Of a DNA stretch of 64,000 nucleotides, positions 1-8,422 are shown piece after piece. Below the pieces are notes generated by a model, which was given only the letters and a program-made list of their open reading frames with translations, did not search any database and was not told the origin of the DNA. Numbering within the stretch: position 1 is the stretch's first letter; every line of letters begins with the position of its first letter. Location: contig CAUYUJ010000116.1 of NCBI GenBank assembly GCA_963575745.1, positions 1 to 64,000 on the forward strand. The letters run 5' to 3'. The translations under genes and the position numbers were made by a program. Source of the stretch: Prorocentrum cordatum (taxonomy: Eukaryota).

Positions 1-154
1 AGGAGGGCGGGAGGAGGCCCGCCCGCGCCGCCTCGCGCGCGCGGCGCTGCCGCGAGGCCGCCAGCCACCAGGCGGAGAGGCAGGGCGCGAGCAGGGGGCT
101 GCAAGCCTGTCGCGCGGAGAACAGCGCCGCGCACGGAGCGGCGGCGCCGCGCGG

Positions 155-287
155 ACGACGGCGACGACGACGAGGAGGAGAAGGAGGAGGACGAGGAGGA
201 AGAGGAGGAGGAGGTGGAGGAGGACGAGGAGGAGGACGACGATGACGAGGACAATGACGAGGACGACGATGACGAGGACGACGATGA
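155..287. repeat. GAC/GAG/GAT trinucleotide low-complexity tract (left LINE flank)
   Basis: Direct reading; the same tract resumes at 6278-6432. Confidence 0.9.
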
Positions 288-1295
288 ATTTTTCCCCGCG
301 CGGGCGAGCATCAATATTCCATCCAGGTCCGCACACCGCGAGCAGCTGCGGCGCGGCGGCGAGCGAAGCCCGCCACCATCCATATCGCGCAGGAGGGGGG
401 GGCAGCGGCAGCAGAGGGGCAGCGAAGGGGAGAGAAAGGACAGGGTACTGGATGCCCGCGCACAACGGGTGGCCGATCTTCGCCCACCCGTGGGAGGTGC
501 CGAGGTACCTCGCGCGCGGGGCGGGGCGGGGCAGCACTGCCCGCACCGATCCTCCCGAACGAGAGTCCTCGGCAGCGGGGGGGCGCACTCGGTGACGGGG
601 GAGGACAGAGTCCATGCCCCGCAAGCCTCGGGCGCTTGCAACCCAGGCCACCGTCACCACGACCCACAACCCAGGCACGAAACACGCCTAGACAAAATCG
701 AGAGGCAGGCACCCTACCTCCCAGAGAGGCGCAACGGGCACAGTTGATCAGGCCGTCGACGGGGCGGGCGGCGGGGGCGGCAGGGAGCGGCGGGGCGGTT
801 GCACGCGCGCCCCCGCGCGCACTCCCCCAGCCAGGCGGGGGCCCAACCCCAGCAGCGCCAGCACGCGCACGGAGGAGCAAGCAGCAGGAGGACCGAGGGG
901 GCGGGCCGGGAGAAAGGCAGGGGAAAGAGGGGAAGGCAGGGGCGGGCAAAACCGAGGACACAACAACGCCCACCCCGCAGGGGAGGGGCAGCGGGGAAGG
1001 CAGGGAGACGGAAGACAGCAAGCGACAGGAGAGGCAAGGGAACACAATGACAAGCACTAGAGCACACGCGCGAGAGGTGAGAGGGGGCGGTCGCACTCAG
1101 ACAACATCACTTCACGAGGCATCCCACCCAATACACTGTGCCCAGAACTGCCGTGCCACAATCAAATCACGCATGGCGTCAAGGATCTGCTCGGTGTCCC
1201 TCTTGCCCTCTGCGCATGTACTGGACTTGGTGCACAACGGGAGGCCGATCTTCGCTCACCCGTGAGATACCGAGGTGCACTCCGACGACATCCCT

Positions 1296-4200
1296 TCATG
1301 TGGCAGCACGCCCAGTACGCCGTGCCCTGAACTGTCGTGCAACACCAGTATACCGACGAGCCAGAAGACGCAATCGTGCCACGAAGACCTGGGACGAGGG
1401 GACCTGTGTCAAACGTCGATGATGGGCGTGCGTCTTAAGACATGCATCGATGAAGGCAGCACAGGCAACGTCGCGGTCGAGCCCCCAGGAAGGTCCCATC
1501 AGACATAGACAGGTAAGCCAGGTGTCACGGTGCTGCCACATCTCCCTCCACGGCGTGGGTAATGCTTCCAACCCAGGGAGACGGTGCAGTGCAAGGTCAC
1601 GGAATCCATCGCAGATTTTATAATGGTGAAGGTCATCGGGGGCCACACGCCCAAAGCAGAACCCACGGTCATTCGCATGAAATCGTGCCGGAGTACAAAC
1701 GCCCCTGGACAGTGCACGTAGAACGTTGGTAGCCAGATGGGTGCACGCGGCACGCTCCACTGCGCGCAATATTGTCCGCAGGCGGAACATATCCTCAGGA
1801 GATGCAGCAACTGACCACCTCGATACCCGTACACTCAGACACAACAAGGGAGTGGCAGCCATACGAACCGACCGTAAGTGCCTATGGACCTTGGCCTGGA
1901 TAAGCCGGGCAGTTCGACCAATTGGAGAGTTCGCGAGGTCCGCAGCATCCTCATTCGTCGTGCGCATCATCGAATGGCACCACCACCCAGGGAACATACG
2001 GGCAGGGATAAATTCATCATCAGCCAAGCCACTAGATAAGCCATCTAACTCATACGGCGCCACATCTAATGCCTTGCACCGCACTATCACCCGGAATTTC
2101 GTAGCTTCATCGTGCAGTCCCAGGTCCACGAATTCAAGCGAGATCCCAAGGTCACGTAACTGGGTGAGCATAGTGTAGTTCAACGCGTGCCGAGGTCCCG
2201 CTGTTAGTATCTGCAATGCTTCCCTGTACTGACGACGAACCCCTGGGGTGACCCTCGCCAGCTGAATCCGATACTGCAAGACTGAGAGGCAATGAGAGTG
2301 GAACATGCGGGTGGTGGTCGCCAAGCCCAGCGAGAGAGAGAGCGAAGAAGACGAGATCGCTGCCAGAACTTATCCATCGTTTCCACCCAAGCCACCTCAT
2401 GGGCCGAAGGGCCCACCCAGAATCCGAGGTGCAAAACTCTGGTGGCGAAACGAACTGATGCGAAACGGCTGCATTTCCGAGTCATGTGAGCAGCGAGGGC
2501 ATCTCCACTCAACGCCCCGCAGATCAGGACGCAGCATTTCCCCACATTCAATGAGAGACCAATCGCGGAAGAGAGCAAGTCAAGAAGCAGCCGGGCGGGC
2601 ATGAGATCGATGAGAATGTCACATAGACCAAAGCAGCAGTCATCAGCGCACGCCAATTGCATACCTACCCGTTCGACGCGGCGGGGACGGATCCAGCGCA
2701 GTACGGGGTCCACGGCCAGTGCAAAGAGGGCCATAGACGCAGGGCCCCCCTGCCGTGCACCCCGTTCCACAGGGAAAACAGTTTCGGCAGCGCCCTCAAA
2801 GCAAACCGGGGCCGCGTTGTTGGCGCATAGGGCTTTGAAGAAGCCCACGGTCTCACTGGGGGCCCCCATGGCCACCAAAACGGCAACAATCCACTCAGCC
2901 AGGATCGAAGGGGACGCCGCCTTGAAGTCGGCAAACAAGGCCCCCGCCTTATCTCTCCCACACATGCGCTGGATAAGGCCCCATCTTTCTACTTCCACGA
3001 CATTGTCTAGAATGTTACGCCCACGAACCCCACCACGCTGGGAGACCCCCACTGTCTCAGGAGCGACGTCGTTGAGCCCCAGACAGAAGGCATCGGAGAG
3101 CATCTTCGCATCCGCATTCGCCAGGGAGAGCGGGCGGGTGGAGGCAGGTGCACGAGAGACAAGTCGCTGCGATCCCTGGGGTCGCTGCCCTTCGGGAGGA
3201 ACACCATCCGACTAACCCGACATTCAAAAGGGAGAGCCCCTCCTCCACTGTTGAAAACCTCATCGTAAACCTCGAATAACGCATCGGTCGCCTCGGGGAC
3301 CTTCCAGCACCCATACGGGATCCCGTCAGGGCCAGGAGCAGAATGAAACTTATGGCCGACACGGCCCCGAAACTCATCCGCGTCAAGTTTCCACCGTGGG
3401 GCAGTAGTACAGCCGCCAATAGTCTGAACATGGGTCAGTATTTCTTCCCAATGAGTCGGGCCGTAATCAACCCGCGCAATAACCTTACTCCAATGGGCAA
3501 CCAGTGCCGCAGAAGCCGCTTCTGGGGAGGCACACGGGGTCCCGCTCTCGTCCAGAACGCCTTGCAGCCCAGTCCTCCTCCTCATGAGATCCCACCCACG
3601 CCTAAAAGCAACCTGCCTCCGCCTCTTCTTGGCCCTGACCTCCTCCACTTGGTTGCTATGACCCACCTCCTCCAATTCCGCATCAAACCAGCGCCCCTTC
3701 AAGGTTAGTGCCAAACTGTCGAGGCCATCAGGATCAGCGCGCACTCCGCCGTCGACGTCGAAGAAAGGCAGGAGAGAGGCGTAGCAACGGATGGCGCCAA
3801 GACAGAGATGTCACTGCCGACCCCTCCGCCCACGGTATGCCATGAATGCAAAGTGTAGCCGTTCCGCATCCTTGTCCGCTGGCCGACACTTAAGGGTCTT
3901 CTTAAATTCCACAGCTGCCGTACCAAACACTTCTTTCACCCTCGCGAGTTTCTGAGCGGGGCCCGATGGGAGCGTAAGCTCCCGCAGCTGTTCGGAAACC
4001 AGTATGTGGTAGTCGGCATGCTGGCTGATCCATTTCGGAACCGAGAAACGACCCTTCGGGGTCGGGAGGGAAACCGCGGCAGCCGCGGGAATGTGATCGG
4101 AGGAGGCCCCTGGATGCATGAGGGCGCCGACAGCGTTGACAACAACGGTCATCTCATTGAGAATACCTGCAGGAAGGGTCGTGTAAACCCGATCTAACCT

Positions 4201-5058
4201 GGCCAGCCCCCTCAGTTCCCGATTCACAATATACCTTCTGGTCGGGTCGGGTTGGTACAATTCACACCAGTGGCCACAATGCTCCTGAAAAGCATCACAT
4301 TGCAAACGGTCCCCAGGCCCAACCTCCCCGGATACAAGAGACCGGCCATCCTCCATCGTACAGAAGTTCCAGTCTCCCAGAATGAAAACCATGGTACGCG
4401 CTGCCGCAGGAAGATCGGCACTGATGAGGCGTAAGTACTGATGATAGATACGAACGTCATCGCACGTGTTAGGCATATGAACATTGACCACTACCAAGTC
4501 GCATCGAGGTCCCCGACAATGGACAAGTAACACTCGCCCAGGAACGACCGTGCTCCGAGCGATCGAGTCGAAGCAGTCACAGAGTTCCGAAGACAGGGAG
4601 GCGACCACTCCCCCCGCGTTTCGATCCTCCAGAAAGCACCCAAAAAATTGCCCAGTCTGCATTTCGTCCCGAAGGATAACCAAGTCTGCTTCAGATCCGT
4701 GCGTCTCCTGTAAACACATGACCTGATACTGTGAGAGCAGCTGCTTGGCCCGAAGGAAGCGCGAACGTGACCGAGATGAGCGAGACGAGAGAGAGGCGAA
4801 GAGCGCGCGCGTGTTCCAACTGCAGAGAGACAGCGGACGGGCAGGACGGTAGATGCCACCAGCTTCCCCAGCAGGCGGCGAGAAGGATAGAGCACTGTCA
4901 CTTGCATGGGGTGCATCAAACTGGGCGGAGAGGGCGGACGAGCACTCAGTAGTAGAACCCACTGGACTTCCCCCCGCCGCACACTCACCTGTCGAACTGT
5001 CCGGATACTCACCGAAAGGAGCGGATCTCTGCGAACCTGGCGTGCAGGCACTGCGCAT
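1296..5058 (-). pseudogene. LINE ORF2: APE endonuclease, reverse transcriptase and C-terminal domain, broken into 4 frames
   Basis: APE motifs SWNTRAL, CLQETH, GDWN, RLDRVY, SDHIP (3811..5058). RT motifs APGPDGIP and VFLPKG (3007..3744), then DFKAA, GARQGGPAS, ACADD, LSLNVGKC, HLGF (2204..3103). Cys/His-containing C-terminus (1296..2324). The YADD motif reads CADD. Confidence 0.92.
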
Positions 5059-6098
5059 GCTGCTGCCCTCCCACTTCCGTCAACCAATCAATCTCGACGC
5101 CACGCTGCACTGTACCCGCGGCTGGGCCATCATCAACAATAGAAATCTTAACCACAGGCGCAGGGACTCCGTTGTCCTTCATCACATACACTGCACCGCC
5201 TAGCCCCGTGGACCCCACTTTGTCCGCCCCGAAGATTCTGGAGACATGCTGTCGCATATTCCCGAGGTAGTAGAACAACTTTCTCGAAGAGGGGGGAAGA
5301 TCGCGTCGGGCCCGTAGCTGTAAGTCGGGCCCGCTCTCAGGGTTCGGGAAAGGGAACGTGCCCACGGACGACGCCATCCCATGGAACGTTGTGGTCTCTA
5401 GGTTGGAATCAAAACCCAGGGAATACTTTCTTACTGCAATCGAAGGCCTTGACATGGATCGAACCCTGAGACGAGGACGGAGCACAGCGGGAGATGATGC
5501 TTTGGGCGGCTTCACGGAGCGTTTTCTCCATCAGCGGCCTTGGAAATCCAAGAACCACAAGACGCGAGGGGTTCCCCACAAGCCCAGACTCAATCTTCCG
5601 ACGGACTTGCCTTTCTTCTTCCCCACGAGGTGTCGGGGACCCAAGCCCGACGACTTTCTGAATATCCTGGATCTCGTCACGCATCGTCTGGATCATTCTT
5701 TTGAGCTCATCCCGAAGGGCAGATTCAGCGGTCTCACGGTCCTGGATGCGTTGCAAGAGGGCCCGTTCGTGGATCGCACGCATCTGCTCGAAATTCGATG
5801 CTGTCTGCTTTGCCAGTTCCGCGCGTGCCTGCTGAAGTGTCTGGAAATTCTTCTCGGCTGCGATCATCTGACCCTGGATTCCCGAGATCTGTTGGTTTAT
5901 CTCTTGCACCCCACGATTCACCTGACTGGATAAGCTGGCGACCGACGACGACAGAGGAGCGATCATGTCATGCATGGCAGCGGGGATCTTATCGGTGTCC
6001 CTCACTCCCTCCATGGTCGTACCTCCAGGGGAAGCAGGCGGAGTGGAGGCTGGCGGAGTGGTGGCAATCGATTCAGGCCAGCTATCTTCAGACGGCAT
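5009..6098 (-). pseudogene. LINE ORF1 (coiled coil plus putative RRM-like region), one frameshift near 5430
   Basis: ATG at 6098 (MPSEDSW...). Heptad-rich segment VASLSSQVNRGVQEINQQISGIQGQM...ELKRMIQTMRDEIQDIQ followed by RLVVLGFP. Continues in ORF 5009..5515 to a stop that overlaps the ORF2 start. Confidence 0.75.
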
Positions 6099-6239
6099 GG
6101 CCAGGGAGGGGAGGAAGGCGCGGCCGCGGCGGGCCGAGGAGGAGCGGCCCCGCGGGGCCAGGGGAGCGCGTCCGCTCCCGGCCTTGGTGCCTGGCCACCA
6201 GGCGCCTCGAGCGAGGTTGGGAAGTTCAGGAGAAGGCCC

Positions 6240-6254
6240 CTTGAGCCAAAATGG
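6240..6254 (-). other. Relict spliced leader (15-nt 3' part)
   Basis: Minus strand reads CCATTTTGGCTCAAG directly after the full SL, exactly the part of the SL downstream of its internal AG. Confidence 0.95.
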
Positions 6255-6277
6255 CTTGAGCCAAAAATGGCTACGGA
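6255..6277 (-). other. Full-length dinoflagellate spliced leader (DinoSL) copy, with one extra T
   Basis: Minus strand reads TCCGTAGCCATTTTTGGCTCAAG versus the established DinoSL DCCGTAGCCATTTTGGCTCAAG. Confidence 0.95.
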
Positions 6278-6432
6278 TGACGAGGACGACGATGACGAGG
6301 ACGAGGAGGACGACGGGGACGACGACTGGGACGACGACGACGAAGTGGACGACGAGGACGAGGAAGATGACGAGGACGACCACGACGACGACCACAAGGA
6401 CAACGAGGACGAGGAGGACGAGGACAACGACG
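6278..6432. repeat. GAC/GAG trinucleotide low-complexity tract (right LINE flank)
   Basis: Direct reading. Confidence 0.9.
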
Positions 6433-7229
6433 GGCACCACTTCCGCCCAGACTCGATCCCCGGACCGCTCCCGAGGACCACGGTGGCAAAGTTTTTGTTT
6501 TGCAATCCGCGTATCCAGCCGTGGCGACGAGAACCTCCCAAACAGCACCCTCACGAACCTCAATGAAAAGTTCCCCAAACAGTGCCTACACTGAAAGGGT
6601 CCCAGCGGAAATTGAAAGATGTGGCGAACATTGCCCGCCGATTTTGGTGGCCGGCTGGGTTCCGGGGTTCCCGGTTTTTGGTTTCCTTGTTCCTGTGGTC
6701 ATTGGTTCCGGTCCGATTTAAGTATGCTCTGGGTTCCCGGGTTCCTGGTCGATCTCCTTGTCGATCTCTCTATCGATCCCATTTCAAACCATCCAGTGAT
6801 TGGGGCTTCTCTCTGGTGTAATGTAGGAGGGCGCGCCGCTGGATGTCCCCAAAGGGGGAGGGGGGGAACCCTTCCCTCCCCCTCCCCTTTCCCCGATCCG
6901 TCGTCGGGGGACCCCCCCCCTCCCCTTCCAGGTCCGTCGTCGGGGAACCCCCCCCTCCCCTTCCCCCCCTTACCGGTCCGTCGTCGGGGACCCCCCCTCC
7001 CCGCCTCCCCCCTTTAAAATGGGGGGGGGTCCGAATCACCCCCCTCCTTTGGCCGCCAAATTCGACCCCCCCCCCCCCCTCACTCCCTTCGGCCCTGGCG
7101 CCCCCTGGCTGCGGAACCCTCCCCGTGCCACCCCGAACGCTAATCCTCATCCATAACCCTAGCCCCTAATCAAAACATCAAGCCCAAACCTTAGCCCCAA
7201 GCCCCTAATCAAAACATCAAAACAAAACA

Positions 7230-8422
7230 CTATTCATTACGCACTACTCACTCCCCACTACTCACTACTCGCTATTCACTACTCACTTCCCACTACTCCC
7301 TACTGACTACTCACGACTCACTACTCACTAAGCACTACTCCCTACCCACTACCCACTACTCTCGAGCCACTACTCCAAATGTACCACTCCCTACTCACGA
7401 CTCACTACTCACTACCCACTACTCGCTACCCACCACTAATCACTATGCACTTCTCATTACTCACTGCCCACAAGTCACTATTCACTACTAACTGCCCGCA
7501 TGCCACTACGCACTACCCACTACTCGCTACTCCCTACTCGCTACACAGTACTCCCTACTCACTATTCAGTACTCACCACTCCCTACTCCCTATTCGCTAC
7601 CCAGTACGCAATTTCACCAACCACTACTCACTACTCATTACTCCCTACTCCCTATTCCCTAGTCGGTACTCACAACTCACTACCCAGTACTCACTACTCG
7701 TTACTCATTACTCACTCCTCACTACTCACGATGCACTATTCTCTACTCCCTACTCACTATTCACTACCCACGAGTCGCTACCCCCCCCCCCCTTTTCACT
7801 ACTCACTACCCACTACTCGCTACTCACTGCTCGTTACTCTCGACTCAACACTCGCTACTCCCTACTCGCTACTCGCTACGCCGTACTCACTACGCGCTAC
7901 CGACTGCTCACACTTCTCTACTCGCTACTCACAACGCCCTACTCGCACCTCACGACTCACTACTCGCTACTCCCTACTCGCTACTCACTGCTCACTACAC
8001 ACTACCCACTACCCACCACTCACTACTCACTACGCACCAGTCGCTAGTCACTACTCCCTACGTTGTACTAACTACTCACTACTCACTGCTCAATACTAAA
8101 TACTCGCCATTCACTACTCTCGACTCAGTACTCACTACTCACCATGTACTACCAACTAGTCACTACCCATTACTCGCCACTCACTACTCACTCCACAGTA
8201 ACCACTACTCCCTACTCCCTACTCAGAACTGGCTACTCACTACTCACTCACTACTCGCTGATCACTACTCACTAATCAGTCCTCACCACTCACTATTCGC
8301 GAAAATCTGCTCCCGACTCCCTACTCCGAACGCCGTACACACTACGCACCACCCAATACCCACGACTCACGGTTCACTACGCACTACTCTCTACTCACTA
8401 CTCCCTACTCCGTACTCCCTAA
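7230..8422. repeat. Degenerate (CTACTCA)n heptamer satellite
   Basis: About 1.2 kb of CTACTCA/CTACTCG/CTACTCC units. Confidence 0.95.

Follow-up and report, generated by a model that had tools for sequence, protein, structure and literature searches.

The 64,000-nucleotide stretch of Prorocentrum cordatum DNA analysed here (the window) contains a decayed LINE whose 5′ end is a DNA-encoded dinoflagellate spliced leader (SL, DinoSL), the short sequence trans-spliced onto host mRNAs, followed by a relict leader, both lying inside the target site duplication (TSD) that bounds the insert. We consider it likely that this is a dead LINE capped by the leader of its own mRNA and expressed from outside the element, and that the arrangement represents a general habit of dinoflagellate LINE and reverse transcriptase (RT) elements; in that part of the explanation which the DNA itself shows, our confidence is high. 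The features on which the argument draws are as follows (window coordinates).

288..6277, minus strand: whole inserted LINE, 5,990 nt, non-LTR, decayed, bounded by the TSD
270..287, no strand: left TSD copy, 18 nt, adjoining the element 3′ end
6278..6295, no strand: right TSD copy, 18 nt, identical to 270-287 and adjoining the SL 5′ end
6255..6277, minus strand: full spliced leader, DNA-encoded, DinoSL with a fifth T
6240..6254, minus strand: relict leader, 15 nt, SL from the base after its internal AG, single in the window
6099..6239, minus strand: 5′ UTR, 141 nt, GC-rich, from the sequence and from run X1 family contigs
5009..6098, minus strand: ORF1, frames 6098-5409 and 5455-5009, with relative P0002 aligning across both
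3811..5058, minus strand: N-terminal part of ORF2, AP-type endonuclease (APE), Pfam Exo_endo_phos
1296..3585, minus strand: RT and C-terminal part of ORF2, in overlapping pieces 3585-3007, 3103-2204 and 2306-1296
288..1295, minus strand: 3′ UTR, ~1 kb, ending ...GGGGAAAAAT, without a poly-A tail

The coding capacity of the insert is that of a two-ORF LINE. The 415-aa ORF at 5058-3811 matches Pfam Exo_endo_phos (E 4.8e-09, 36.7 bits vs. a cut-off of 24.5) and the ORF at 3103-2204 matches RVT_1 (E 1.9e-08, 34.7 bits vs. a cut-off of 29.6), with a CADD motif seen in the RT translation. ORF1 consists of a 229-aa piece (6098-5409) and a 148-aa piece in another frame (5455-5009), separated by one frameshift near 5410-5450; the relative P0002, of 380 aa, spans both frames, indicating that an intact ORF1 would measure ~360-380 aa. 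The ORF2 frame is broken several times, and with both ORFs frameshifted this copy is dead. Neither ORF1 piece reaches the cut-off of any Pfam family, no long direct or inverted repeats (LTR) were found flanking 288-6277, and the 64-kb window holds no second copy of the element. We therefore class 288-6277 as an APE-type non-LTR retrotransposon on its endonuclease, its RT and its TSD; a poly-A or simple-repeat tail is absent, the element ending ...GGGGAAAAAT directly before the TSD, which is no bar to the class because LINEs of Symbiodinium lack poly-A tails (PMC5890265; here and below, statements on the literature refer to excerpts of the cited articles). The 3′ UTR contains an internal 47-nt repeat (460-506 vs. 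1232-1276, 87 % identity) with its copies ~770 nt apart, one of them just after the ORF2 stop, and such 3′ UTR repeats may reflect internal duplication or a repeated 3′ recognition element. A further stretch of 50 nt in the 3′ UTR (1161-1210) is 76 % like the start of ORF1 (5962-6011). With three relatives of ORF1 and one weak relative of the APE, the family is barely represented in the protein collection. The closest ORF1 relative, P0001 (79 % identity, 55 % of the query covered), stands in a eukaryote protein set under the green alga Pyramimonas sp. and may be a dinoflagellate sequence within that data set.

The borders of the insert are decisive for the status of the leader. A reading made from the sequence alone (the sequence-only reading) had claimed that the target duplication begins right at the SL 5′ end, and this is borne out: 270-287 equals 6278-6295, and a self-abutting duplication of at least 18 nt was present at 0 of the 281 positions tested in two acidic triplet tracts, where the maximum was 15. 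A shifted register gives a TSD of 27 nt (255-281 = 6278-6304), and the 15-nt periodicity of the target leaves the register (18 or 27 nt) ambiguous. The sequence on either side is part of a single GAC/GAG-type triplet tract, which rejoins seamlessly when 288-6277 is excised together with one TSD copy. The plus frame then stays open; since this GC-rich tract is open in several frames, an open plus frame is no proof of a host gene or its strand, and a Pfam search of 28 large ORFs elsewhere in the window found nothing that fixes the direction of a host gene. Since the SL array lies inside the TSD-bounded insert, it is part of the inserted cDNA.

The DNA around the insertion site is itself repetitive. 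Three copies of a 36-44-nt C-rich repeat (CCCCTCCCC... GTCCGTCGTCGGGG) are present at 6862-7009, just beyond the site, and 7173-8100 is a long tandem array with a 7-nt period (46 aligned copies, spacings mostly 14 and 21 nt) that is open in two plus frames as YSLLTTH-like peptide repeats. A candidate repeated module combining the UTR with an acidic tract was dropped, the comparison of window positions 1-150 with the 5′ UTR giving a score of 28 vs. 23 ± 3.7 (maximum 39) for shuffles.

Read directly on the minus strand, 6277-6255 is TCCGTAGCCATTTTTGGCTCAAG, a DinoSL with a fifth T in its T run (6267-6263), and CCATTTTGGCTCAAG at 6254-6240, directly 3′ of this leader, is the exact 15-nt relict in the form given in PMC7245778 and PMC12014239. 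The proposed order of SL and then relict at the element 5′ terminus, followed by a 141-nt UTR (6239-6099) and the ORF1 ATG (6098-6096), is thus found in the DNA, with one amendment to the description of the leader as full: a DinoSL is present, at 23 nt rather than the 22 nt of the canonical form DCCGTAGCCATTTTGGCTCAAG (PMC7245778). A later indel, slippage of the RT or a variant form of the leader could account for the extra T. In run X1, contigs with about half of the summed depth at 6263-6267 lack one T, most of them being other leader-bearing loci, and five-T decayed relicts are also seen in loci of the survey described below (e.g. L011). The relict 15-mer occurs a single time in the window when up to one mismatch is allowed, vs. 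0.02 occurrences expected from shuffles (2 of 100 shuffled windows had any such match). The first leader base is ambiguous and may belong to the SL or to the TSD.

The exact form of the two units bears on how they were acquired. The outer unit ends precisely at the exon end, the inner one begins right after the AG of the SL, and no SL-intron bases follow the leader. An RT that jumped twice onto free SL donor RNA, as in U6/L1 chimeras, could place leader sequence at an element 5′ end with no trans-splicing at all, and SL RNA is presumably abundant in the nucleus. Against this stand unit boundaries that coincide precisely with the exon end and the internal AG, a form that is expected from splicing and that is the same in the surveyed non-LINE retrocopies, and we regard such double jumping as very improbable. 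SL sequence adjoining a LINE end would also be seen if the element targeted SL RNA genes and the leader were target sequence. For the window copy this is excluded by the flanks, both of which are the triplet-repeat tract and duplicated as the TSD; no SL intron follows the leader, the endonuclease is of the APE type, and the flanks of the survey loci differ and are often microsatellites, making SL-gene targeting the most remote of the alternatives, with a probability close to nil. Nor did an Rfam search of 1-7000 (E up to 1) detect an SL RNA gene, a ribozyme or another Rfam family; its five matches to miRNA models all lie far below the gathering scores, and a novel ribozyme would escape such a search. 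A ribozyme-made 5′ end is without support in the Rfam search of 1-7000.

The reading that we prefer is a sequence of trans-splicing and retrotransposition rounds. Because the TSD-bounded insert opens with a DNA leader at its precise 5′ terminus, its template RNA must have started with that leader. From the relict it follows that the parent copy already held a DNA leader whose AG served as the splice site, and hence that there were at least two rounds. In the first round, an ancestral copy would have been transcribed and given an SL by trans-splicing, its RNA copied by the RT to the first SL bases, and the cDNA integrated by target-primed reverse transcription. In the second round, a daughter with a DNA-encoded SL would have been transcribed and trans-spliced at the AG inside that SL (CCGTAG/CC, the slash marking the splice site), yielding an RNA with a new SL and a relict that was fully reverse-transcribed and inserted in the triplet-repeat tract. 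Use of a 3′ splice site depends on a branch point that precedes it. For the AG at SL positions 6-7 this would call for an outron, so that the round-2 precursor probably began in flanking host DNA and not at an internal promoter firing at the first base of the element, which lends logical support to the proposal of the sequence-only reading that an internal promoter may be dispensable. The element would accordingly be expressed from outside, by read-through or from an upstream unit, with its 5′ end made by trans-splicing; the retroposed SL would serve as a portable acceptor, and each visible relict would stand for one such round. The accepted origin of relicts is likewise that a retroposed SL is re-spliced at its internal AG (PMC7245778, PMC6050394). 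Trans-splicing of the element RNA is inferred here from DNA, and the dependence of element expression on read-through, while well argued, is likewise a deduction from the form of the leader units. The earlier proposal that the RNA of this LINE went through two or more rounds of trans-splicing and complete reverse transcription is upheld by the SL and exact relict within the TSD-bounded insert, and gains further ground from the same architecture in unrelated LINE/RT elements of public contigs.

We next consider whether the leader units and the element body belong together. DNA sequencing runs matching the window numbered three (shares 0.26, 0.06 and 0.05), and Logan contigs of four runs, thousands of them at ~200 nt each, cover the whole element at roughly 85-96 % likeness, from which it follows that the family is multi-copy over its full length. 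One 190-nt contig of run X1 is collinear over 6018-6207, from the ORF1 start into the UTR, with eight differences, and other contigs cover 6219; as the X1 contig covers both the UTR and the ORF1 start, the 5′ UTR belongs to the repeated family. Family contigs of run X1 also cover the 3′ UTR down to ~469 and are thin at 235-468. The peak in contig depth at 6085-6552 reflects the ubiquitous SL and triplet repeats, and among the ~200-nt contigs of the four runs none was shown to bridge the junction of UTR, SL and flank. A scan of metagenome contigs with ORF1 gave 380 pattern matches, of which 0 were confirmed. These data bear on a chimeric origin, in which a host mRNA or retrogene would have supplied both leader units and some or all of the UTR, either through a template switch of the RT or because the LINE inserted shortly after the start of an older retrogene. 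LINE RTs do make chimeras with other RNAs (PMC11838501), and the UTR lacks recognisable features. Yet the TSD brackets everything from the SL through the 3′ end as a single insert, the family contig of run X1 keeps the UTR and the ORF1 start collinear, and the layout, including the short distance to the first ORF, recurs in independent elements whose UTRs are unrelated. We therefore give a chimeric retrocopy little credence.

Recurrence of the architecture was assessed in a survey of public metagenome contigs, which were scanned for two perfect tandem relicts and yielded at least 117 loci; the two-perfect-unit requirement biases the survey to multi-round copies, so that it shows recurrence and not the share of LINEs with an SL. 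Long flanks were taken for the first 80 loci among the matches listed; there, the sequence downstream of the array measures at least 400 nt in 70 loci and at least 1300 nt in 45. Pfam was run on 117 of 130 sense-downstream ORFs among the matches listed, and at E up to 1e-5 it found an APE and/or RVT_1 domain in four loci (L035, L043, L055 and L069). Together with one locus below the cut-off, all sense downstream of the array, these are:

L035: RVT_1 5e-16, Exo_endo_phos_2 2.5e-06
L043: Exo_endo_phos 2.1e-06
L055: RVT_1 2.2e-12, Exo_endo_phos 2.9e-06
L069: RVT_1 2.8e-14, with APE at 1.5e-05 in a looser pass
L049: weak RVT_1 at 2.7e-05, below the cut-off, with a QGDP...FADD motif

As a control, the longest 148 of 211 upstream or antisense ORFs among the matches listed contained RVT_1 or APE in 0 cases. 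ORF2 of L035 matches human L1 ORF2p structures (2e-08), and the L049 ORF has no PDB relative by sequence. In tblastn, the APE of the window element hits L055 (5e-15), L037 (1.5e-08) and L045 (5e-05), in each case downstream on the leader strand, and the ORF1/APE protein of L055 is matched by L037 (9e-48) and L031 (4e-06). Beyond the four Pfam loci there are ~5 further LINE/RT loci on weaker evidence among the matches listed, with L031, L045 and L049 included on weak similarity alone. In the LINE loci, the distance from the array to the first long ORF is 33-239 nt. L031, L037, L043 and L055 have a full leader as their outer unit; in L035, L045 and L069 the outer unit is truncated, and L035 and L069 contain additional decayed leader units. 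The survey contigs end before the element 3′ ends, and the TSD is known from the window element alone. The tandem-relict motif was found in 0 viral contigs and in one prokaryote-MAG contig, which has 11 nt downstream of it.

A pair of loci on different contigs, L049 and L077, deserves separate mention. At 99.7 % identity over 3079 nt the two are close copies that encode an RT-like ORF of 1730 aa, and within the first ~160 nt they differ by one 16-nt leader unit, L049 having four units and L077 three. Such a difference is just what stepwise addition predicts; an additional round of trans-splicing and retrotransposition would account for it, as would misassembly of the tandem array.

Two other survey loci have a noteworthy layout. 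In L003, two divergent genes (1-3912, minus strand, and 4857-6821, plus strand) each combine DnaJ with an RNase H-like domain (RVT_3), an unusual domain pair, and the leader array sits between them and heads the plus-strand copy. With such a gene on both sides of the array, L003 was rejected as a retroelement. L069 carries, at 3-6545 on the plus strand, a 2181-aa ORF without a Pfam family, in the same orientation as the array at 7001; it ends ~455 nt upstream of the leader array of the APE and RT element, with a (CATA)n tract in between. The L069 layout would fit expression by read-through.

The survey also gives information on target choice. The 24 nt upstream of the leader array (loci L001-L118) are a near-perfect microsatellite in 12 of 70 distinct usable flanks vs. 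4 of 1280 control windows, and among the matches listed a microsatellite lies directly upstream of the array in four of seven LINE loci. The abutting repeats include (TA)n, (GT)n, (CT)n, (CAA)n, (CAT)n, (CATA)n and (AGAC)n, at LINE and non-LINE retrocopies alike. The target of the window element is likewise a triplet-repeat tract, and together these flanks suggest one integration machinery with a preference for simple repeats. Since microsatellite targets are common to the non-LINE SL retrocopies, there is modest support for a LINE as the source of the RT behind SL-bearing retrogenes.

The serious rival is that the tagging is incidental: the LINE would have its own promoter in the 141-nt UTR and ordinarily produce unspliced RNA, with SL-bearing copies as rare by-products of read-through that are irrelevant to its life cycle. 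Trypanosomatid LINEs do use the Pr77 promoter and give unspliced RNA, a preprint on two Symbiodinium genomes reports that SL-relict genes and RT genes do not overlap in function (10.1101/783902), and a survey selected on SL arrays does not give the share of SL-less full-length copies. On the other side, arrays of two to four units on several unrelated elements indicate that SL-bearing copies were repeatedly successful parents, every relict demands transcription from outside the element, and SL-relict genes are enriched for 'RNA-dependent DNA replication' (Song et al. 2017, PMC5585692). On balance we regard incidental tagging as unlikely, and more of a contender than the other alternatives. The stronger version of our own reading, in which dinoflagellate LINEs in general have a host-made 5′ end and no internal promoter, relict counts equal generations and LINE machinery makes the SL-tagged retrogenes, is tentative, and we would place it somewhat short of an even chance.

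An SL-capped LINE with a TSD would mean that LINE RTs copy trans-spliced RNAs to the very first leader bases, that they do so repeatedly, and that the copies are integrated by target-primed insertion. Dinoflagellate genomes are rich in SL-tagged retrogenes, and a LINE RT is a concrete candidate for their maker, with a testable signature in the TSD length and microsatellite targets that retrogenes should then have in common. The arrangement further points to a way for a retrotransposon to survive in a genome where recognisable promoters are scarce, as trans-splicing would cut a capped, translatable RNA from any sense transcript. If the number of relicts tracks transposition rounds, it provides a rare internal generation counter for a transposon family. 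If the stronger version is true, dinoflagellate LINEs ride on the read-through of unidirectional gene arrays with the SL as a portable trans-splice acceptor, and the thousands of SL-tagged host retrogenes come from the same LINE machinery, with its landing sites in microsatellite-like DNA.

How does the window element compare with known systems? Closest in form are the DinoSL-relict retrogenes, which are 'recycled' processed cDNAs (Slamovits and Keeling 2008, as described in PMC6050394 and PMC7245778). Both have a full SL and the 15-nt relict CCATTTTGGCTCAAG at the 5′ boundary, in both repeated rounds would lead to tandem relicts, and in both the retroposed SL supplies the AG acceptor. Unlike in these retrogenes, the cargo here is an autonomous retrotransposon with its own APE and RT, a TSD and no poly-A. 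In the excerpts, SL relicts are described for host retrogenes, with the source of RT left open or an LTR element favoured (PMC6050394, PMC12014239, PMC3942190), specifically LTR Ty1/copia favoured or the RT undecided in PMC6050394 and PMC12014239. RT genes are treated there as helpers or as independent of SL-relict genes and not as SL-capped elements (PMC6050394, PMC5585692, 10.1101/783902); Song et al. 2017 read the enriched 'RNA-dependent DNA replication' as a helper activity (PMC5585692). Our literature search, with subscription-only papers and supplements outside its scope, found no description of DinoSL or leader arrays at the 5′ ends of dinoflagellate LINEs.

Among LINEs, the nearest counterparts are the SymbioLINEs of Symbiodinium, whose 5′ and 3′ UTRs are conserved and which carry TSDs and lack a poly-A tail (de Mendoza et al. 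2018, PMC5890265). The window element resembles them in being a two-ORF LINE with Exo_endo_phos and RVT_1 domains, TSDs and no poly-A tail, and differs from SymbioLINE-Dnmt in that Pfam finds no DNMT (cytosine methyltransferase) domain in either ORF1 piece. The terms 'spliced leader' and 'DinoSL' are absent from the text of that article. A precedent for the idea of SL-bearing retrotransposons is provided by flatworms, where a genome-encoded leader joined to LTR and LINE elements was read as integrated trans-spliced element RNA (PMC12582326; Schistosoma mansoni, PMC5832876). In contrast to the present case, the excerpts on these flatworm loci contain brief remarks made during SL-gene filtering, with no analysis of junctions or TSDs and no relict arrays, and the authors of the Schistosoma mansoni study also allow for assembly chimeras (PMC5832876).

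Other LINEs obtain a precise 5′ end or a spliced-leader neighbour by different routes. R2 carries a 5′ ribozyme, and SLACS, CZAR, CRE and NeSL-1 are LINEs that insert in SL RNA genes. In the trypanosomatid L1Tc/ingi elements, a Pr77 internal promoter is combined with an HDV-like ribozyme (PMC1874656, PMC3185411, PMC3383444). The window element has in common with L1Tc/ingi and R2 that the exact 5′ end of the LINE would come from RNA processing of a longer transcript, and with L1Tc/ingi also that the host has polycistronic-like transcription. Those elements are self-cut by a ribozyme and have unspliced RNA, whereas here, with no ribozyme family detected, the processing would be done by host trans-splicing. 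SLACS, CZAR, CRE and NeSL-1 likewise adjoin spliced-leader sequence, but in their case the leader is the target and the flanks are halves of the gene, whereas here the leader lies inside the TSD and is part of the cDNA.
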